Of a stretch of 64,000 nucleotides of DNA, positions 5,178-16,272 are shown piece by piece. Below the pieces are notes generated by a model. That model was not told where the DNA came from and ran no database searches. It saw nothing but the letters and a program-made list of their open reading frames with translations. The position numbers were made by a program, and so were the translations under genes. Positions within the stretch are counted from its first letter, which is position 1. Each line of letters opens with the position of its first letter. The stretch is from Planctomycetota bacterium (GTDB taxonomy: Bacteria > Planctomycetota > B15-G4 > JADJEK01): assembly GCA_044225365.1 (NCBI GenBank), contig JBGAIQ010000017.1, forward strand, positions 1 through 64,000, written 5' to 3'.

Positions 5178-8108
5178 CTACGGAGACTCTGAACCGTGCG
5201 CGGCCCGCTGCACCATGATCCGACCGATCGCCGTCTTCAGTGCCTCGATCTGGACGGGCTTCGTGAGGAATCCGTTCATGCCGGCGTCGAGGCAGCGAGT
5301 CTCGTCCTCCTTCATCGCGTTCGCAGTGAGGGCGATGATCTCGGGCTGGCGATTCGGTGGCAGTAGTTCACGGATCCGCTGCGTCGCTCCGATCCCGTCG
5401 AGCACGGGCATCTGGATGTCCATGAGGACGATGTCGTATCCGCGCTCGAGAACGGCGTTCACCGCTCGTTCGCCGTCGGTCGCGATGTCGGCGCGAAAGC
5501 CGATCTTCTCGAGCATCTTGGCGATCACGCGTTGATTGACCGGATTGTCCTCGGCAATGAGGATCCGAGCGAGCTCGTTCGAAGCGGCAGGGGTGGGATC
5601 GGCGGCGCGTGGGCTCTCGCGATTCGTCACGCTCTTCGACGAAGCCGGCGAAGGCTGACCGGTCGACCGTATCTCGGTAAGCAGTTCGGTGATCGTGCGC
5701 TCGAGCACGCGCACTTTGGCCGGCTTCAGCACGATCGAATCCACTCGTGCCTGCCGTTGGTCGAGTGCGGCTTGGGGCGATTGCACCGACGACAGAAGGA
5801 TGAGCGGCAGATCGGGACTCTCGCGATTCAGCGTCGCGGCGAGCTCGGCGCCGTCCATGCTCGGCATGTGGAAGTCGAGGATCGCGAGGTCGAAAAGCGA
5901 CCCGGAGCGCAAGGCCCCGATTGCATCCTCTCCGGACTCGAACACGATCGGCTTCATGCCGAGACGACGGAGCTGCTGCTCCAGGATCCGACGGTTCGTC
6001 GGATTGTCGTCGACCGCCATGACCACCTTGTCTCGCAGGAGGGGATTCACGTCGGCGTGCCGATCCAGTGCCGGCGAGGTAGCTTCGTCCGCGAGCAACG
6101 TGAAGTGAAAGGTCGCTCCCTTGCCGGAGATGCTTTCGACCCAGATCTTCCCGCCCATCAGTTCGACGATCTGGCGACAGATCGCGAGGCCGAGCCCCGT
6201 GCCGCCAAATCGCCGCGTGGTCGAAGCATCGACCTGGGAGAACGGCTGGAACAGTCGTGAGACGCGGTCCTCCGGGATTCCGATTCCCGTGTCGCGCACG
6301 GAGACATGAAGTTCGTGCGTGACGATTTCGCCGGAGTGAACGACTCGCGAGTCGATCTTGAGTTCGACTTCGCCGTGCTCGGTGAACTTGACCGCGTTTG
6401 CGAGCAGATTGGTCAGGACCTGCTGGATGCGGAATTCGTCGCCCAATACCTGCTCGGGCGTTTCCTGCGACAAGTCGAAGAGGAGCTCGATCCCGCGTTC
6501 CGCGGCGCGAGCGCCGACGAGATCGAGACAGCGTTCGGCGCAGGAACGGAGTTCGAACGGGAGTCGCTGCAACTCGAGCTTTCCGGCCTCGATCTTCGAG
6601 AAGTCGAGGATGTCGTTGATCACGGAGAGCAGCGCATCTCCCGAGCTGCGGATCGTCGACACGTATTCCTGCTGATCGCGATCGAGACTCGTGGTGAGCA
6701 GGATCTCGGTCATTCCGATCACCCCGTTCAACGGCGTGCGGATCTCATGGCTCATGTTCGCCACGAACGCGCTCTTCGCGTGATCGGCCGCGAGCGCCTG
6801 ATCCCGAGCGCGGCGAAGGTCCGACGTGCGCTCCTCGACGATGCGTTGCAATTCTCGCTCGCGATGCAGCTCCTTCTTCCTCTCGCGTTTCCACAGCGCG
6901 AGCAGGAGGGCGCAAATCGCGAACAGCGCGCCGTTCCCGAGGTGAGCACCGAAGGCGAGCGTTTGGGCCGCATTCACGTCGGCACGCGACTCGAACGCGA
7001 CGTTGGGCTCGCCGACCCACAGACTCCAGTGTCCCCAATCGTCACGGATCGAGAGCGGCTTCGTCCGGGAGTAGATCAAGTCCGGATCGGGGGCCCCGGC
7101 TCGCGCGAAATCGATCGAGCGAGCCACCTGGTCCGGGGCGCGGGGATCGATGAACAACTCGGACTCGGGGCAGAGGATCGCGACGTTTCCGTTCGGCAGC
7201 CGATCGCGCAGCATGTGTTCCAGCGCGACGATCGATACGCAACCGAGAAGGGCGCCGGCGTCGCTGTAGAACGGGACGGAATAGACGAAGCCCGTGCGAT
7301 CCAAGTCACTGGGATGGCGCGGAGAGTAGCGCGTGTTGTCGCAGGTGATGACGGGTCGGGAGGCTACCGCGACGTAGTGGATCGCGTCCGTCGCATCGAC
7401 CGTCGCCGCATGCGCGGCGAACCAGTCGAGCTGGCGACGCATCTCGCGATATTCGTAGACCTCGATCTCTGCGACCTCTTCTTCGCCTTCTTCGAGCACT
7501 TCGTGCTTCTCATCGTGCTCGGAAGAATTCGGTTCGTCCGCCGTCTTGCCGACGATGAGGGAGTCGAACGTGATGAGCGGCTCGGTGGGGCGAGCGTGAC
7601 TCGGGTCCTGCCCATCGGGATCGAGGGACAGCGGTACCACGTAGACTTCGGAGACCGCGACATCGCTCGCGAGCGTGTTGTAGATCTCCTGGAAGGCGCG
7701 CTTCGTGTTCTCCTCGAATTCCTTGCCACCGCCGTGGAATTCGAGCTCCGCACTGGGGTCGAGCTTCCGAATGCCGGGCATGCGCGCCATCGTGATCGCG
7801 GCGAGGTACATCTTGTCGAAGACCTGTTCGAGCTCGCTCGCCGTCGCATTCACTCGGTCGTTGGCTTCTGCGCAGTAGAGGTCGCGCGCGGCATCGAGAT
7901 CGTGATGCTCCTTCACCGCAATGAGCTTCGCAAGAGTCGCACAGACGAGGACGAGGGCGGTGAATCCGACTGCCAGGAACCAGTTCTCGCGAGGTGTGCG
8001 ATTCGCGGCGCGCGGGAACGGGGCGGATGAATTCTCTCTCCGCGCCACCGGGGGAGCCGCGGGGTTCAGGGGTTTTGCGCCCGACGGCGCGCTGGGGCGA
8101 GATTCCAT
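5178..8108 (-). CDS. Membrane hybrid sensor histidine kinase with two receiver domains
   Basis: Two TM segments, H-box [14 protein letters not shown] box [11 protein letters not shown] boxes DTGIGI and GGTGLGL, REC domains LDFHMP and MDIQMP. Confidence 0.93.
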
Positions 8109-9114: not shown

Positions 9115-10314
9115 TCACTTCGCACTCGGTCGATCGAGCGCCTGGATCAACCCGAGGATCGCTTCGTGGCGGCTCTTCGGCGCGCGCACGACGAGGCTGT
9201 TGGTGCGCGAGTCCGGGACGATGAAGACGCGGCTCTCGGACGGGGCGTAGATCGGATCTCCATCCTTCTCCTTCCCGATCACCGTATGCGACTTCTCGAC
9301 GAAGAACGCGTTCAGCGTGACCGCGATCTCCTGGGCCGCCGCGTTCTTCATCGCGACCACCGCCGTGTCGAGGGGATCCTCGGGAGCGACGTCGAGTTGC
9401 TTCGTGAGCGCTTCGGCGAAGGCGATGGCGTCGCGCGTGCCCGTCACCACGAGCGAATTCGACAGGGAGTTGGCCGTGACTCCGAGACTCGGGGATTCGG
9501 GGATTGGCGTTGGTTGTGGTGCGCGCAGAACGCCACGGAACTGATCTTCGACGATTCCCGCGACGTCGCTCGCGAGCGCGTGATGGAGTGGGATCACGAT
9601 CGACTTCCGATCGACCGGTTGAGGTTCGACGTCGATCATCCGCACGAGGTCGGCGACCTGCGCGAGGTTCGATCCGAATCCGGTCAACAGCACCGCGTTC
9701 GAAGTCGCGACGGCGCGCACCGATTCGAGCATCGGATCGGTGAAGTAGACCTGCAGCGAATTCGTGGCGTCCTGCGCATTCGCATGCGCAAGTTGGATCG
9801 ACGTCGTGAACAGCAGCGCGCTGTCGAAGCGATGGGACTCGAGCTCGCTCGCGGGAATGAACGGCGCCTCGGTCTTCATCGCTCCCGGACGGCCATTGCC
9901 GCCGAGCGTGGACCGCAGCGAGTAGCTCGGCGTGATGCCCTTGCCCTGGGAGGCGCGGTTTGGAAGCAGCGCCAGCTCGGAGCGCCGCAGGACATCCTGA
10001 TAGAAACTGAAGAACTTCGCCTTCGGAACGCGCTGTGTGCCGACTCGACGCATGCCGCGATCGGCGAGATCGCGTTCGTTGAACTCGAACGCGTAACCGG
10101 TCACCTTCGAGCACAACTCCGTGAGCGCTTCGAGGGAAACGGAATCCCGAGCCGTGAAGTCGAGAACGACATCGTCGCCTTCGATGCGATACGAGGCGTT
10201 CGTCGATTCGGTGTCGACCGGTTGTTGATTCGGTGCGGGATCGACTTGCGCGCGCGCGAGCATGGGAAAAGCGATTCCGGCGAGCAGACTGCAAGACACA
10301 GCGACGTTTTTCAT
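9115..10314 (-). CDS. Secretin N-terminal domain protein (GspD-like N domains, no barrel)
   Basis: Signal peptide and repeated secretin_N-like motifs (IPLHHALASDVA, SNSLVVTG, PDSRTNSLVVRAP...LIQALDRP). The protein ends there. Confidence 0.7.
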   Translation of the reverse strand: MKNVAVSCSLLAGIAFPMLARAQVDPAPNQQPVDTESTNASYRIEGDDVVLDFTARDSVSLEALTELCSKVTGYAFEFNERDLADRGMRRVGTQRVPKAKFFSFYQDVLRRSELALLPNRASQGKGITPSYSLRSTLGGNGRPGAMKTEAPFIPASELESHRFDSALLFTTSIQLAHANAQDATNSLQVYFTDPMLESVRAVATSNAVLLTGFGSNLAQVADLVRMIDVEPQPVDRKSIVIPLHHALASDVAGIVEDQFRGVLRAPQPTPIPESPSLGVTANSLSNSLVVTGTRDAIAFAEALTKQLDVAPEDPLDTAVVAMKNAAAQEIAVTLNAFFVEKSHTVIGKEKDGDPIYAPSESRVFIVPDSRTNSLVVRAPKSRHEAILGLIQALDRPSAK

Positions 10315-10407
10315 CGTTCGTTCCTCGTGGGTTTGCCCGAACGGGCAAGGGATTCGTGCGGCGTGAGACGCTCGCACGACGAATCCTCCTTGCTGCGAAA
10401 TCGAGAT

Positions 10408-11682
10408 TCAGGGTGCGGGATAGCGCCAGAAGTCGGCGGGAGGGACGCGTTCGTTCTTCGGGGCGAGCACGACCGCGAAGCCGATCGCGGTCGGCGCCAG
10501 ATCGCGTCCGCGCTCGTTGAACTGCGTGCCGCCGTAGCGCGTTCCCGATCCCGCGAGATGGAACTCGACGAAACGCTTCGACCCAAGATCGAAGGTCGCC
10601 GTTCCGCCGAGCGCGAGTTCGACGCCTCGCTCCTGATCGGTCGGCTTCCCCGCGTCCTTGAAGTTCGACACCGACCACTTGCCCTTCGCGTGGGTCCGAG
10701 TCGCGCCGGAGAACTCGATCCTCATGCGGTCGCCATCGAGACCGACGACCTTTGCGCGCAGGCTCGCGACCTCGATCTCCTTGTCCTCGTACGCCGGACT
10801 CTGCCCTCGCACGGTGTCGACGAAGTGCAGCGCGGCGAATCGCTTCACCAGCGATTCATCGACATCGCGCGCTGCGCCCATCGCCGCCTCCGGCACGAAT
10901 GCGAGTACCTCGCTGCCGCGAAGCCAAGCGAAGTCGACGTTGTAGGCGGTCGTTCGCCAGTCGTCGCCGACTTGCGGGCGATCGAGATCGCGGCAGAACA
11001 CTTTCAGCACGGTGCTGTCGGTCGGTTGCCGCGAGACGAAATCGGAACCGCCGGTCGGCGCATCGGAATCGAGGTCTGCGAGCCACTTGTCCGCATCGCT
11101 CATCGCGTCCCACTTGGCGATCGCGGCGTCGAGCATCGCGGAGACGCGCTTCACGCTGTTGCTGTTGATCGAGGCCAGCAGCACTCCGCTCGGCGCGCAG
11201 GCGTAGATGCCTTGCCGCGTGTCGCTCGGGAAGACGCGGCCCGCGTAGTGGCCCTGCTCCGCGATCTTGCGGAAGAGATCGCAGTCGCGACCCTTTTCGT
11301 GATGCAGTCGCCACACTTCGTCCGCCACCGGGACGAAGCGCTTCATCTGCTCTGCGATGTGACTGTCTGCCCAGACCGACCGGCGGGCGATGATTCCGTT
11401 GTTTCAGGTACACCCGAGCGGGTGACCGTTCATCGCCCAGAGCAGGATCGGGCGCTTCTCTCGTTGCGCTTCCTTGACCGCGTCCCAGAAGACCGTGCGC
11501 CATCCGAGGGAACGGAATGCCAGTTCTTCGTCGCCCGGAAGGACCTTGCGTTCGATGGCGGCGAAGTCGATCGCGGGATGCGCGTCGTCCCGCGGGAGCG
11601 GAGTCGAAGCGATCACGATTGCGGCTGCGGCGGCGAGGAGAACGAAGAGGATCCTCGTTCTCGAGAGGGCGTAAGCCTTCAC
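10408..11682 (-). CDS. Putative exported thioredoxin-fold selenoprotein, 424 aa, with UGA (Sec) at codon 93
   Basis: GTG start at 11682 overlaps the DUF1501 stop (GTGA). After a signal peptide the frame reads WDAVKEAQREKRPILLWAMNGHPLGCT-TGA-NNGIIARRSVWADSHIAEQ and runs in frame into ORF 10408..11346. Confidence 0.75.
11369..11388 (-). promoter_or_regulatory. Candidate bacterial SECIS hairpin
   Basis: The minus strand reads GCCCGCC-GGTC-GGTCTGGGC at +19..+38 counting from the U of UGA: a GC-rich stem with a GGUC apex. Confidence 0.6.
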
Positions 11683-13094
11683 GCGAGGATCTCCTTCACC
11701 ACCTGACCAGCGACGTCCGTGAGTCGGAAGTCGCGTCCGGCGTAGCGATAGGTCAGCTTCGTGTGTTCGATGCCGAGGATGTGCAGGATCGTGGCGTGAA
11801 GATCGTGGACGTGCACCTTGTCGACGCTCGCGTAGTAACCGTAGTCGTCGGTAGCGCCGTAGTGGAATCCGCCCTTCACGCCGCCGCCCGCGAGCCACAC
11901 GGTGAAGCCGTGCGGATTGTGATCGCGGCCATCCTTGTCTTGCGCGGTCGGCGTCCGTCCGAACTCGCCACCCCACATCACGAGCGTGTCTTCGAGCAGG
12001 CCGCGCACCTTGAGATCCTTGATCAACGCCGCGATCGGCTGATCGACCTCCATGGCGTTCTTCGCGTGATCGGCCTTCAAGTTCGAATGCTGGTCCCACT
12101 TGTAGCTGTGGGTGCATTGGATGAAGCGCACGCCCGACTCGGCGAAGCGACGGGCGAGGATGCACTGTCGCGCAAAGTTGTCGGTCGGGGCCTGATCGAC
12201 GCCGTACATCTGCTTCGTCGCTTCGGTCTCGTTCGAGAGATCGAAGAACTGCGGCGCGACCTTCTGCATGCGGAATGCGAGCTCGAACGAACGGAGTCGC
12301 GCTTCGAGCGCCGAGTCGTTCTCATGGAGTTCGAGGTGCTCGGCGTTGAGGTCCTTCACGAGATCGAGCTGCATGCGTTGGACCGCGTCATCGATCTTCT
12401 CGTTCTTCAGATGCCGAATGCGGGCGTCCTTCGCGGGCACGCTTGCGTTACCGATGGGCGTGCCCTGGTAGACGCCGGGCAGGAAGGCCGACGACCAGTT
12501 GTTGACGCCGCCATGACCGAGCGTCGGGCAGATCGTGAGGAAACCGGGAAGGTCGCGGTTCTCGCTGCCCAGGCCGTAGAGGATCCAACTGCCCATGCTC
12601 GGGCGAACGAACGTGTCCGATCCCGTGTGCATCGCGAGCAGCGCGCCGCCGTGCGCCTCGTTCGTACCCCAGAGGGAGTGGATGAAGCAGAGGTCGTCGA
12701 CGACCTCACCCACCTTCGGAAAGAGGTCCGACACCGGAGTGCCCGACTCTCCGTAGCGCTTGAACTTCCACGGCGAACGCAGCAGGTTTCCTGTCTGCGC
12801 GAACTGGATGCGCGGCTTGGGGAACGGGAGCGGCTTACCGTCGTCGCGTTCGAGCAATGGTTTGTAGTCGAAGGTGTCGACCTGCGATGGCCCACCGTGC
12901 ATGAAGAGGAAGATCACCCGCTTCGCGCGCGGCGCGAACATCGGCATGCGCGGGGCCATGGGATCGAGCGCCCCGGCCCTCGCCATCTCGGGAAGCAGCG
13001 CTTGTGCAGCGAGCCAACCGAAACCGCCCGACACCGCCTTCAAGAGACTGCGCCGACTTGGACCGCAGCACGGGTCGCGAGGATCAGTCGACAT
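11679..13094 (-). CDS. DUF1501 family protein (Tat-exported, sulfatase-like fold)
   Basis: Tat motif SRRSLL; AKRVIFLFMHGGPSQVDTFDYKP; WGGEFGRTP; GRDHNP; HDLHATILH. Confidence 0.92.
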   Translation of the reverse strand: MSTDPRDPCCGPSRRSLLKAVSGGFGWLAAQALLPEMARAGALDPMAPRMPMFAPRAKRVIFLFMHGGPSQVDTFDYKPLLERDDGKPLPFPKPRIQFAQTGNLLRSPWKFKRYGESGTPVSDLFPKVGEVVDDLCFIHSLWGTNEAHGGALLAMHTGSDTFVRPSMGSWILYGLGSENRDLPGFLTICPTLGHGGVNNWSSAFLPGVYQGTPIGNASVPAKDARIRHLKNEKIDDAVQRMQLDLVKDLNAEHLELHENDSALEARLRSFELAFRMQKVAPQFFDLSNETEATKQMYGVDQAPTDNFARQCILARRFAESGVRFIQCTHSYKWDQHSNLKADHAKNAMEVDQPIAALIKDLKVRGLLEDTLVMWGGEFGRTPTAQDKDGRDHNPHGFTVWLAGGGVKGGFHYGATDDYGYYASVDKVHVHDLHATILHILGIEHTKLTYRYAGRDFRLTDVAGQVVKEILA

Positions 13095-16000
13095 AGACGA
13101 ACTCCGAACTCGCGAAGAGCGCCTGGCAGAACGTCGCGAAGGCGTGAAGTGGACGGTCGTCCTGTGCGGGCAGACTCGATGCGACCGAATCGAGATACCG
13201 CACGATGCGATCGCGCTCGACGCTCGTGGGATCGCGAAGCAGGATGCGCTGGAACGCGAGAGCGATTCGCGCGTCGCGATCCTCGTTCGCGGCGAAGATG
13301 CTCTTGGCGAGCGCCATGCTCTGCTCGATCGCGAACGGGCTGTTCATGAGCCACAACGCCTGACTCGCGATCACCGACTGCGGGCGCTGATCGAGCGGCA
13401 CGCTCGGATCGGCGTAGTCGAAGGTCGAGAGGAACTCGTACATCGCGTTGCGAATGACCGGCAGGTAGAGCGTGCGCCGTGGGATCACGTATTCGCCGCG
13501 ATCGGCGGACTGATCGTTCGTGACGTAGTCGCGATCGTTCGTCTTCAGCACGGTTCCGCCGATCGTGCGGTCGAGCGTGCCGGCGATCGCGAGCATCGAA
13601 TCGCGAATCTGCTCGGCGTCCATTCGCCTCCGCGGAAAGCGCGAGAGCATGCGATCGTCGACGTCCTTCTCGAGCGACTCCTTCGATGCGGTCGGCGCCG
13701 CGCGATACGTCGTCGAGAGGACGATCCGTCGATGCACCGCTTTCAACGACCATCCGCTCCGCATCAGTTCCCGCGCGAGGTAGTCGAGCAGTGCGGGATC
13801 GGACGGCTCTTCGCCGCGGAACCCGAAGTTGGAGGGCGTGTGCGACAGACCGCTCCCGAAATGGAACTGCCAGAGGCGATTCGCGATTACGCGAGAGGTG
13901 AGGGGATTGTCCTTCGACGTCAGCCAGTGCGCGAACTGCAGTCGCCCGCTCTGACCCTCGGGAATGGGCTCGAGTGTCGCGAGATCGGCGAAGACCGCGG
14001 GCACGGCGCGAGACTGCGCAGTCGCTTCCTTGTTCAGATGGCTGCCGCGAATGTGGACCGGCAGTTCGACGACCTTGTCGTCCTTCACGCCCATCACGCG
14101 ATCGAACTCGGGCGGCTTCCTCGCGTCGATCCCGGCGAGGACGGCGACGGCTTTGTCGATGTCCTCGCGTTCCTTCGCAAGGAACGCGCTCGGGTCCTCG
14201 ACCTGCGATTTCCCGATCGGGCCGCGCTCGGAGATCAGGGACTTCACGGCTTCCTGATACGAAGCGTCCGCGAGGAGGGCTTTCTTCGCTTCATCGGCTT
14301 GCGCGGGGGTTTGCGCGGCGAGAGCAGTTTCGACTCGCTTGGAGAGTTCGATCGCGCGAGCCTTGTCGGCGCCGCCTCGGGCGAGCCACTCCGCGGTGCT
14401 CCGGAGCAAGCTCGGGTCGAGGCCATTCGAGTTCGAAGCGGGCCAGGACTCGCCGCCCTTCGTCTCGGGATGGAGCAAGAGCGTGTTGACGTGCGGGAAG
14501 TGCTGCGGCTCGTTCGGGATGCGTTCGAGGCGCAAGGTGACCCTCGTCGCAGCGGCCTCGAAGGATCCCACGGTCGCCCACTGGCGATGCTCGGACTTGA
14601 ATCCGCCGGTCGCGACTTCGAGCGCTCGCTCTGCGATCGGCGCCCCGTCCGCGAACACGCGGATCGGTCGCGACTCCCCGCTCGCGTAGCGGATCTCGAG
14701 CGCATAACGGCCCGGCGCGGGGAGGTCGATCGCGTACTCCGCGAACTGCTGCCCGGCCTGATGGGTGTGGATGAAGCCCACATCGGCGTTGCCGAACTGC
14801 TCGTGATCGATTCGGAGGTTGCTCGACGCGAATTTCTCGGCGTCGAGCACGACGGCGTGCGAGGCCGCGTCGGCGACGGCTTCGATCGCCTTGCCGAGAC
14901 CGCGCAGCAGCGCGAGTTCGCGATTCGTTCGCGCCTCGCCGCGCAGGTGTTGCAATGCGCCATCGGCATCGCCTCGTTCCTTGCGCCACGCGTCGCGTGC
15001 GGCGATCGCACCGGTTGTCGCGAGCTCGCGCTCGCGCCAGCGCGACAGGAATCCCAGGTCGTCGAAGGTACTCGTGCTGCGGAAGATCCCGCCGAGTGCG
15101 TAGTAATCGCGCTGCGTGAACGGGTCGAACTTGTGATCGTGGCAGCGAGCGCAGGCGAGGGTCACGCCGAGGAAGGTCTTGCTGACGACGTCGATCTGCT
15201 CGTCGACGGTGTCGATGACGAGCTTCTCCTTGTCCTGTTCGGCGAGCATCTTCGGCCCGAGCACGAGGAAGCCCGTCGCGGCGAGCTGTTCTCGCAACTG
15301 CTTCGTGTCCACGGATGAACCGCTCGCGCTCTGCGAAGGCTCGGGGAGGAGGTCGCCCGCGAGCTGCTCGGTGATGAAGCGGTCGTAGGGTTTGTCGTCG
15401 TTGAAGGACTGCACGACGTAGTCGCGGTAGCGATAGGCCAGCGAGTACGCCAGGTTCTCGTCGACGCCGTTGCTGTCGCTGTAGCGGACGAGATCGAGCC
15501 AGAAGCGAGCGAAGCGTTCACCGTACTGCGGCGACGCGAGGAGCCGATCGACGACTCGCTCGAACGCATCGGGAGCCTCGTCCTTCAGGAACGCGGCGCA
15601 CTCCTCCGGCGTGGGCGGCAGTCCGGTGAGGTCGAGCGTCACGCGGCGCAGCCATGTGCGTCGATCACAATCGTTGGGAACGGCGATTCCGCTCTTCTCC
15701 AGTCGATCGATCACGAAGCGGTCGATCGGATCGCGCACCCGCGAGGCTGCGGCGCCGTTCGCGAGACTTGGGGGAGTCGGGTCGGCGATCGGACGGAATG
15801 CCCAATGCTGGCGGCCCGCAACGAGATCGATCTTGCGCGGAGCGGAGGGACTCGACGTCGATCGGAACTCCGGCGCCTTGTCGCGCGGGTCCGGCGCTCC
15901 CATCGCGATCCATTTCTCGAGATCGTCGATCTCCGGATCGGGCAGCTTGCCGCGCGGCGGCATGTGGACGTCGGGATGCGTGTAGCGCACGGCCTTCACG

Positions 16001-16272
16001 AGGAGGCTGTCCGCGGAGTGGCCGGGAACGATCACGGGTCCCGACTCGCCGCCTCGTTCCCAGCCCGGACGGGAATCGAGCGCGAGCCCGCCCTTCGTCG
16101 TGCCGGCGGACTCGCTGTGGCACTCGAAACAGTTCTGGACCAGGATCGGTCGGATCTTCGATTCGAAGAACTCGTCATCGGTCCTCGCCCACGCTGAGGG
16201 CGGCGCGACTGCAATGGCGGCGAGCATTGCGACGTCGATGCTCGAGCGGTGCGATCGAGTGGGAGTCGGCAC
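13084..16272 (-). CDS. Planctomycete cytochrome c / DUF1549 (PSCyt2) / DUF1553 (PSD1) protein with a CBM-like insert
   Basis: FFESKIRPIL..CFECH, HWAFRP, LRRVTLDLTGLPPT, CARCHDHKFDP, NPLTSRVIANRLWQFHFG and RRMDAEQIRDSML. The start codon is uncertain. Confidence 0.92.
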   Translation of the reverse strand: MPTPTRSHRSSIDVAMLAAIAVAPPSAWARTDDEFFESKIRPILVQNCFECHSESAGTTKGGLALDSRPGWERGGESGPVIVPGHSADSLLVKAVRYTHPDVHMPPRGKLPDPEIDDLEKWIAMGAPDPRDKAPEFRSTSSPSAPRKIDLVAGRQHWAFRPIADPTPPSLANGAAASRVRDPIDRFVIDRLEKSGIAVPNDCDRRTWLRRVTLDLTGLPPTPEECAAFLKDEAPDAFERVVDRLLASPQYGERFARFWLDLVRYSDSNGVDENLAYSLAYRYRDYVVQSFNDDKPYDRFITEQLAGDLLPEPSQSASGSSVDTKQLREQLAATGFLVLGPKMLAEQDKEKLVIDTVDEQIDVVSKTFLGVTLACARCHDHKFDPFTQRDYYALGGIFRSTSTFDDLGFLSRWRERELATTGAIAARDAWRKERGDADGALQHLRGEARTNRELALLRGLGKAIEAVADAASHAVVLDAEKFASSNLRIDHEQFGNADVGFIHTHQAGQQFAEYAIDLPAPGRYALEIRYASGESRPIRVFADGAPIAERALEVATGGFKSEHRQWATVGSFEAAATRVTLRLERIPNEPQHFPHVNTLLLHPETKGGESWPASNSNGLDPSLLRSTAEWLARGGADKARAIELSKRVETALAAQTPAQADEAKKALLADASYQEAVKSLISERGPIGKSQVEDPSAFLAKEREDIDKAVAVLAGIDARKPPEFDRVMGVKDDKVVELPVHIRGSHLNKEATAQSRAVPAVFADLATLEPIPEGQSGRLQFAHWLTSKDNPLTSRVIANRLWQFHFGSGLSHTPSNFGFRGEEPSDPALLDYLARELMRSGWSLKAVHRRIVLSTTYRAAPTASKESLEKDVDDRMLSRFPRRRMDAEQIRDSMLAIAGTLDRTIGGTVLKTNDRDYVTNDQSADRGEYVIPRRTLYLPVIRNAMYEFLSTFDYADPSVPLDQRPQSVIASQALWLMNSPFAIEQSMALAKSIFAANEDRDARIALAFQRILLRDPTSVERDRIVRYLDSVASSLPAQDDRPLHAFATFCQALFASSEFVYVD

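Follow-up and report, generated by a model that had tools for sequence, protein, structure and literature searches.

Is the TGA at positions 11404-11406 of this locus the end of a short exported peptide, or is it a selenocysteine (Sec) codon inside one longer protein? The question concerns a gene on the minus strand (10408..11682) of a 64,000 nucleotide stretch from a Planctomycetota bacterium (NCBI GenBank: GCA_044225365.1, contig JBGAIQ010000017.1, positions 1 to 64,000), which is the whole stretch of DNA that was analysed and is called the window here. An earlier note on the window had proposed that the in-frame UGA joins two open reading frames (ORFs) into one exported selenoprotein with a thioredoxin fold. 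Comparison with relatives shows a recoding signal of the SelB/SECIS type (SECIS: selenocysteine insertion sequence) at the conserved UGA, and we infer that selenium is incorporated at residue 93 (U93). Judging from the sequence comparisons, we consider it very likely that this is a real selenoprotein gene, and hardly less so that it encodes one 424-residue exported selenoprotein in which UGA93 is read as Sec via SelB and the SECIS element and forms a C-x-U site on a thioredoxin fold.

Reading frame and the TGA column

The gene comprises 424 codons and ends with a TGA stop at 10410-10408. A Shine-Dalgarno-like AAGGAG (11691..11696, minus strand) precedes its GTG start (11682-11680) at a spacing of 8 nt. 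The start shares bases with the TGA that ends the DUF1501 gene upstream (GTGA), and this overlap suggests that the two genes may be co-translated at this locus. The N-terminus of the protein reads MKAYALSRTRILFVLLAAAAAIVIAS, and the residues before the in-frame TGA (11404..11406, minus strand) are WDAVKEAQREKRPILLWAMNGHPLGCT, or in a longer stretch RPILLWAMNGHPLGCT. Between this TGA and the ATG at 11346 of a 312-aa ORF there are 19 open codons (NNGIIARRSVWADSHIAEQ), all in frame. Every element of the layout that the earlier note had described, from the GTG through the TGA and the 19-codon bridge to the 312-aa ORF and the total of 424 codons, was found again when the sequence was re-read. The codon was assigned as U93, in the motif G-H-P-L-G-C-T-U-N-N-G, from the conservation of its column in homologs.

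All of the public runs compared (4 of 4) have contigs that span the TGA (region 11200-11700), and none of these contigs has another letter there. One of the covering contigs, from another study, has 16 differences over its 500 nt (11200-11699), and another has 32 differences from the window. The TGA is not a sequencing error, because the contigs of all four runs, including the divergent ones, agree on it. TGA also terminates the selenoprotein gene itself and the upstream DUF1501 gene; as it is the ordinary terminator of both, the genetic code is the standard one.

We searched 61 relatives in six frames with the read-through protein, and 26 genomes matched, with 35 places listed. There is one TGA in 26 of the 35 places; only two of the other nine cover residue 93, and both of these read Cys there. 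Translation placed the TGA at a single position in 23 of 25 loci, the other two being full-length with C-N-C and C-D-C, and the motif ranges over G-H-P-L/I-G-C/A/G-T/V/S-U-N/G/A-N-G. The search was extended to the phylum with a profile of 50 sequences (E <= 1e-10), which matched 127 of 401 genomes. Among the 150 matches listed, 140 contain TGA (135 one, 3 two, and 2 a TGA plus a TAG) and 10 contain none, of which 3 are partial and stop short of the N-terminal part. Twenty further regions of the phylum, with 23 matches, showed U in the motif in 18 cases, Cys in one and a remodelled loop free of Cys in four. The TGA at this column is thus confirmed by translation in 41 loci (23/25 and 18/23), and a local alignment of 42 full-length sequences has U in 35, Cys in 3, Ser in 3 and Asp in 1 at column 93.

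A degenerate DNA pattern, W-x-M-[ND]-G-H-P-L-x-x-x-TGA-x-x-G, was additionally run over one genome per GTDB species and found at least 120 loci. The TGA is obligatory in this pattern, so these loci are uninformative on the ratio of Sec to Cys. A tblastn comparison with the window protein identifies all 120 pattern loci listed as homologs, and in 119 of them the alignment crosses residue 93 in a single high-scoring segment pair. The titles of 80 pattern loci, among the matches listed, all belong to metagenome-assembled genomes (MAGs): 54 are of Planctomycetota type, 14 of Verrucomicrobiota type and 5 of Armatimonadota type, and the rest are Neomarinimicrobiota (1), Latescibacterota (1), Gemmatimonas (1), Paracoccaceae (1) and "uncultured bacterium" (3).

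The TGA column is therefore maintained among sequences from several phyla that are merely 25-47% identical, and the bridge between TGA and ATG is conserved as protein (N-N-G...R..V-W). An in-frame UGA at one column, with protein conserved on both sides of it in divergent homologs, is what is expected of a bacterial selenoprotein. A tBLASTn search with the read-through protein had been proposed as a check, and it bore out the proposal: homologs have TGA, more rarely Cys, at codon 93, with both flanks conserved. Cys forms are few and rare in the family, and together with the Sec forms they make up the Sec/Cys pair typical of a selenoprotein family. They were found in L046, L040, L051, P0008, P0055, P0067, P0082, P0183 and P0227, the last with the motif G-C-T-C-N-N-G.

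Many genomes carry several paralogs, with up to 4 matches per genome in the 401-genome search (for example G106, G145, G153, G260 and G384), and two sequence sub-types can be told apart there, W-A-M-N-G...R-R-S-V-W and W-A/E-M-D-G...D-R-E-S-T-F. One locus (L050, G345:C321:4700-11900) has two copies on the same strand about 4 kb apart, a Sec copy with A-G-U and a redox-less copy with T-G-D; the open frames that contain them are very long, at 1562 and 1998 codons. Three relatives have a second TGA, which is a true stop or, in L066 (G153:C359), a codon that replaces the near-invariant Trp253 (TGG). A second Sec in relatives with an extra TGA was considered and rejected, as these are true stops and the case of L066, in a contaminated MAG, looks like a mutation or assembly error.

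Recoding signal and Sec machinery

The hairpin that the earlier note had put forward as a candidate SECIS element lies at +19..+38 from the UGA (11369..11388, minus strand), with GCCC-GCC pairing to GGU-(CU)-GGGC around a GGUC loop. When the 45 nt that follow the TGA are folded, this hairpin, GCCCGCC-GGUC-GGUCUGGGC at 11388-11369, is the structure of minimum free energy (MFE), with -9.9 kcal/mol, and its sequence is identical in the close kin L021, L022, L026 and L169. The published rules for bacterial SECIS (bSECIS) elements ask for an apical loop of 3-9 nt whose first two positions contain a G, an upper stem of 4-16 bp, a spacing of 16-37 nt and an MFE <= -7.5 kcal/mol (PMC13188914). With its 4-nt loop GGUC starting with GG, its spacing of 22 nt and its energy of -9.9 kcal/mol, the window hairpin satisfies these rules (PMC13188914).

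The relatives point to a second helix, which pairs columns 15-21 with columns 27-33 around a loop at 22-26 and corresponds to 11374..11392 (minus strand) in the window, 4 nt further 5' than the first hairpin. Counted from the TGA, 48 nt align gap-free in 23 relatives, where this 7-bp helix has the loop C-G-U-G-N. It is paired in 89% of cells in these relatives, compared with 29-44% when its 3' side is slid, 4 of its 7 pairs change on both sides, and RNAalifold predicts it independently from the same alignment. In an alignment of 120 sequences (the pattern loci listed plus the window) 75.5% of cells are paired, compared with 34-46% when slid, and all 7 pairs show changes on both sides. There are 103 such cells compared with a mean of 38.8 in shuffled alignments, and none of 500 shuffles reaches 103. 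At pair 18-30, for example, 51 sequences have C-G and 33 have G-C. The family helix agrees with the bacterial SECIS model in its spacing of 18 nt, its 5-nt loop with G second followed by U, and its stem length (PMC13188914). The window may use either the register of the family helix or that of the first hairpin, and both fit the bSECIS rules.

The source genome, which is 94% complete, contains selA (486.6 bits), selB (346.5 bits), selD (361.5 bits) and tRNA-Sec (68.5 bits), all of which exceed their curated cut-offs; ARAGORN calls the last one as tRNA-SeC(tca). The presence of this machinery had been named as a check of the proposal, and all four components are thus there. The genes selA and selD adjoin at G000:C90:85984-88375 (L001, L010), and selD itself carries one in-frame TGA, so the genome has at least one further selenoprotein. 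Among the relatives, selA was found in 23 of 23 genomes with the TGA form.

Fold, active site and rival readings

An AlphaFold2 model made from 50 aligned relatives, with Cys substituted for Sec, has a mean predicted local distance difference test score (pLDDT) of 90.5 and a predicted template modelling score (pTM) of 0.87. In it, a hydrophobic N-terminal helix is followed by a domain with a thioredoxin fold and, at the C-terminal end, by one rich in beta strands. Residues 1-26 (11605..11682, minus strand) form a putative signal peptide or membrane anchor, with a basic start followed by ILFVLLAAAAAIVIA and a predicted helix at 2-26 of low pLDDT. Many relatives also have a hydrophobic N-terminus followed by Cys, as in a lipoprotein signal, and the window protein is presumably exported and either periplasmic or membrane-tethered. 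The thioredoxin-fold domain covers residues ~57-197 (11092..11514, minus strand) and places U93 between strand 79-84 and helix 94-101. The predicted fold therefore spans the TGA, with the strand before it and the helix after it, and the two halves do not occur as independent genes. The C-terminal domain, residues ~220-410 (10453..11025, minus strand), has long antiparallel strands and no clear solved relative; R231, D250, W253, E258, R281, H286, D289 and R391 are counted as its conserved polar residues.

Residues 57-197 are most similar to the DsbD-gamma-like structure 3f9u_B, with a score of 13.3, a root mean square deviation of 1.8 over 105 aa and a Foldseek E-value of 2.8e-4. The same comparison gave 11.5 for AGR3, 10.6 for 3ira and 10.5 for DsbH, and among UAS domains 9.8 for UBXD7 and 8.3 for FAF1. 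A PDB sequence search with the window protein alone returned nothing at E <= 10. Among Pfam families, Thioredoxin_7 alone recurs as a weak match, in 5 of 50 members at E <= 1 with a best value of 0.0031. Taken together, the model and the weak profile matches agree with the thioredoxin-like fold expected by the earlier note and place it with the Thioredoxin_7/DsbD-gamma/AGR type.

The topology of the model is that of thioredoxin, and the redox residue stands at the N-terminal end of the helix that follows strand 1. Aligning the family profile with the C-H-W-C of 3ira put U93 on the first Cys and G96 on the second (E 0.031). The active site has neither CxxC nor CxxS and reads C-T-U-N-N-G. The C-x-U site proposed for the window is the commonest motif of the family: among the matches listed, Cys is found at -2 from Sec in 109 of 119 pattern loci, and 4 N-T/V-U variants carry it at -3 instead, which gives Cys at -2 or -3 in 113 of 119. 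A vicinal Cys-Sec couple is thus the rule, although it is not universal.

The DsbD-gamma-type domains (PDB: 3f9u, 1vrs chain D, 2fwf, 6dnu) and DsbH (PDB: 2ju5, 7tkv) have CxxC, whereas the window protein has C-x-U-x-x-G with Sec at the first position of the CxxC and Gly at the second. It also differs from DsbD in lacking the DsbD membrane domain and in having an extra beta domain of ~200 residues, and the identity is 10-17%. Thioredoxin_7 (Pfam: PF13899), which includes AGR2/AGR3, ERp19/TXNDC12 and the DUF255-type 3ira, matches the family below threshold and differs in active-site motif and architecture. In the catalogued bacterial thioredoxin-fold selenoproteins, too, Sec stands in a redox motif and the SECIS lies within the coding sequence (PMC13188914, Table 1). 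The window family is set apart from them by having no match to their models and neither PF13192 nor PF13098, and by its G-H-P-L-x-C-T-U-N-N-G motif and its C-terminal domain.

A likeness to the eukaryotic SELENON had been suggested in the earlier note. In PMC12839072 the SELENON motif is given as S-C-U-G, and the C-T-U-N-N-G of the window differs from it. SELENON further has an EF-hand and a transmembrane anchor ahead of the redox domain, whereas in the window protein no Pfam EF-hand was found, although an N-terminal hydrophobic helix is present. SELENON is absent from the 50 best hits of the PDB fold searches, which does not exclude a likeness; at the level of fold the likeness is to UAS-type thioredoxin domains only.

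By fold and motif, the protein would be a periplasmic Cys-x-Sec oxidoreductase. SelB and Sec-tRNA(Sec) would decode UGA93 as Sec under the direction of a SECIS hairpin within the coding sequence, which begins 14-18 nt downstream of the UGA. The Sec would then sit at the N-terminus of the first helix, where CxxC has its attacking Cys, with Gly at the position of the resolving Cys. Its selenolate may attack a disulfide, sulfenate or peroxide-type substrate, and Cys91 may resolve the intermediate as a Cys91-Sec93 selenenylsulfide. The C-terminal beta-meander domain of ~200 residues is assumed to hold the substrate or a partner. It is known that CxC motifs can mimic protein disulfide isomerase, and by this analogy an isomerase or oxidase role would be as plausible as a reductase role. 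A wider reading seems rather doubtful to us, namely that the protein is the founding member of a large Sec-dominant selenoenzyme family of Planctomycetota, Verrucomicrobiota and Armatimonadota, sporadic elsewhere, which joins a C-x-U site on a DsbD-gamma/UAS-like domain to a substrate-binding beta-meander and whose thioredoxin module is a bacterial relative of the Sec domain of SELENON.

Several observations count against the selenoprotein reading or soften it. The energy of the window hairpin is unexceptional for GC-rich sequence (z = +0.53; 131 of 200 shuffles fold equally well or better), and, being at shuffle level, the hairpin on its own proves nothing. Its register was also rejected as the family-wide SECIS, as 46% of cells are paired compared with 37-51% when slid, and the family helix forms 5 of its 7 pairs in the window. 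The hairpin of the earlier note thus stands as the best fold of the window and as one that satisfies the bSECIS rules, but its energy does not single it out and its register lacks family-wide support. The signal above chance is the comparative one, consisting of the conserved TGA column, both flanks and the covarying hairpin in the relatives. At the column itself, 8 called proteins include 2 with Ser and one each with Ala, Arg and Asp; Asp is also seen in L050 copy 2 and P0015, and the loop is remodelled in L052, L053 and L054 copy 2. Since these include full-length relatives with a residue other than Cys, the scaffold exists without a redox residue too. The presence of selA discriminates little, because its baseline among the relatives is as high as 54 of 61. 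The fold was modelled with Cys in place of Sec, and PF13899 is not reached at its gathering score, the window protein having no Pfam match at E <= 0.01. In the clustering of 923 flank ORFs from ~125 loci, no cluster occurs in more than 5 loci, so there is no conserved neighbour in this sample.

The rival that survives best accepts the Sec and questions its chemistry: U93 could be non-catalytic, in a selenium or metal binder, a redox sensor or an AGR-like binder of chaperone type. The Gly at the resolving position of CxxC would agree with this, as would the Cys at -2 that is missing in ~8% of members (among the matches listed), the AGR2/AGR3 and UAS domains among the structural neighbours, and the lack of a nearby reductase partner in the clustered flanks of the ~125 loci. 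Redox-less versions also persist, one of which (P0015) is fused to a Ser/Thr kinase and Kelch repeats, suggesting a scaffold for sensing or binding. Sec is costly, however, and in the catalogued families it is mostly found in redox motifs (PMC13188914). In this protein it stands where the fold has its nucleophilic Cys, with the neighbouring Cys at -2 or -3 retained in nearly all members (113/119, as above), and we regard a non-catalytic role as unlikely, although it is the alternative to be taken most seriously.

That the TGA is a true stop, leaving either a pseudogene with a nonsense mutation or two genes, one for an exported peptide of 92 residues and one for a cytoplasmic protein of 312, seems very improbable. 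In its favour, gene callers everywhere treat the TGA as a stop, an ATG follows 19 codons later, and the hairpin energy of the window is unexceptional. A stop would, however, hardly be kept at one column at 25-47% identity in several phyla and unchanged in independent assemblies, with 19 bridge codons conserved as protein, a predicted thioredoxin fold that requires both halves, and full-length Cys forms in existence. A read-through of UGA that inserts Trp, Cys or Gly, whether through near-cognate decoding or a changed code, would equally explain the conservation on both sides of the TGA, with nothing specific in its favour, and is just as improbable, as TGA ends both the selenoprotein and the DUF1501 genes under the standard code, the sense-codon relatives mostly have Cys and not Trp or Gly at the column, the covarying hairpin lies at the distance expected of a bacterial SECIS, and the genome has the complete Sec machinery.

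Annotation, distribution and genomic context

The window protein has no match in Pfam or NCBIfam (NCBIfam at E <= 0.01), and 50 members searched against NCBIfam at E <= 1 gave only stray single matches to NF041382 (1/50, E 0.021) and NF041199 (1/50, E 0.12). Each of the 104 close database proteins either lacks a name or is labelled "hypothetical protein", and a precomputed Pfam domain exists only in P0217. Most of these 104 proteins span ~72-76% of the query and were therefore called from a start after the TGA. Public gene calls are truncated: of the best 150 representatives, 140 have a best matched stretch that begins no earlier than residue 97. The earlier note had anticipated that standard gene callers would split the gene. 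The neighbours of the post-TGA fragment P0184 in the ESM Atlas are only unnamed Planctomycetota clusters.

Among the 119 prokaryotic selenoprotein families of a 2026 review (PMC13188914, Table 1) no entry with the motif and architecture of this family was found, and for those families that have a model, none of the models matches. The Global Ocean Sampling (GOS) survey has the unnamed families GOS_A to GOS_C. In PMC2398784, GOS_C is described as UxxC and GOS_A by 2 Sec and 155 Cys forms, and both are, as described there, unlike the window family. Table S9 of PMC4807772, on a planctomycete from Porphyra, contains one split "hypothetical" candidate with a Cys homolog, which is given without sequence and is not assignable to the family. 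No description of the family was found in the literature, where a prior description is possible, and the family is widespread and apparently uncatalogued.

It occurs in roughly one in three of the genomes sampled from the phylum (127/401, often with several paralogs) and in other phyla, and public databases record it only as truncated "hypothetical proteins". Because the family is split in databases, selenoproteome counts and gene annotation in the Planctomycetes-Verrucomicrobia-Chlamydiae (PVC) group would be systematically too low. We suspect that the composition of mostly Sec and few Cys forms is part of the reason why searches for Cys/TGA pairs may have missed it. The family is a clear target for a new NCBI or Pfam model. 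For biochemistry it is a compact case, open to experiment, of a C-x-U redox centre that a thioredoxin fold carries and that is linked to a domain without a solved relative.

Two samples of the gene neighbourhood were taken. Pfam was run on 72 flank ORFs of 18 loci, these being the ORFs of ~230 aa or more among 214, and the second sample was the clustering of flank ORFs described above. In the latter, DUF1501 is found beside family members in 4 of ~125 loci (L020, L023, L046 and L056); in L046 it lies on the opposite strand, beside the Cys paralog. A radical-SAM gene was also found in 4 loci, all of one family. A function based on operon structure was rejected, as the genomic context varies among loci.

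Fusions of the module to other domains were each seen once, in P0015, P0217, P0020, P0142 and P0082. The first is the Sec-less kinase and Kelch fusion with Asp at the column, and the partners among the five further include DJ-1/PfpI, a PQQ beta-propeller, a C-terminal EF-hand (P0142) and a SecDF P1-head domain. These partners were rejected as a functional clue, being diverse and seen only once each. With the context not conserved and the fusions diverse, the function has to be argued from fold and motif alone.

In the window itself, the DUF1501 gene (11679-13094, minus strand) is preceded upstream by a gene for a PSCyt1/PSCyt2/PSD1 protein (13084-16272, minus strand). Downstream of the selenoprotein gene, on the minus strand, 5178-8108 encodes a hybrid histidine kinase that has two receiver domains, and 9115-10377 a protein in which three secretin N-domains occur.

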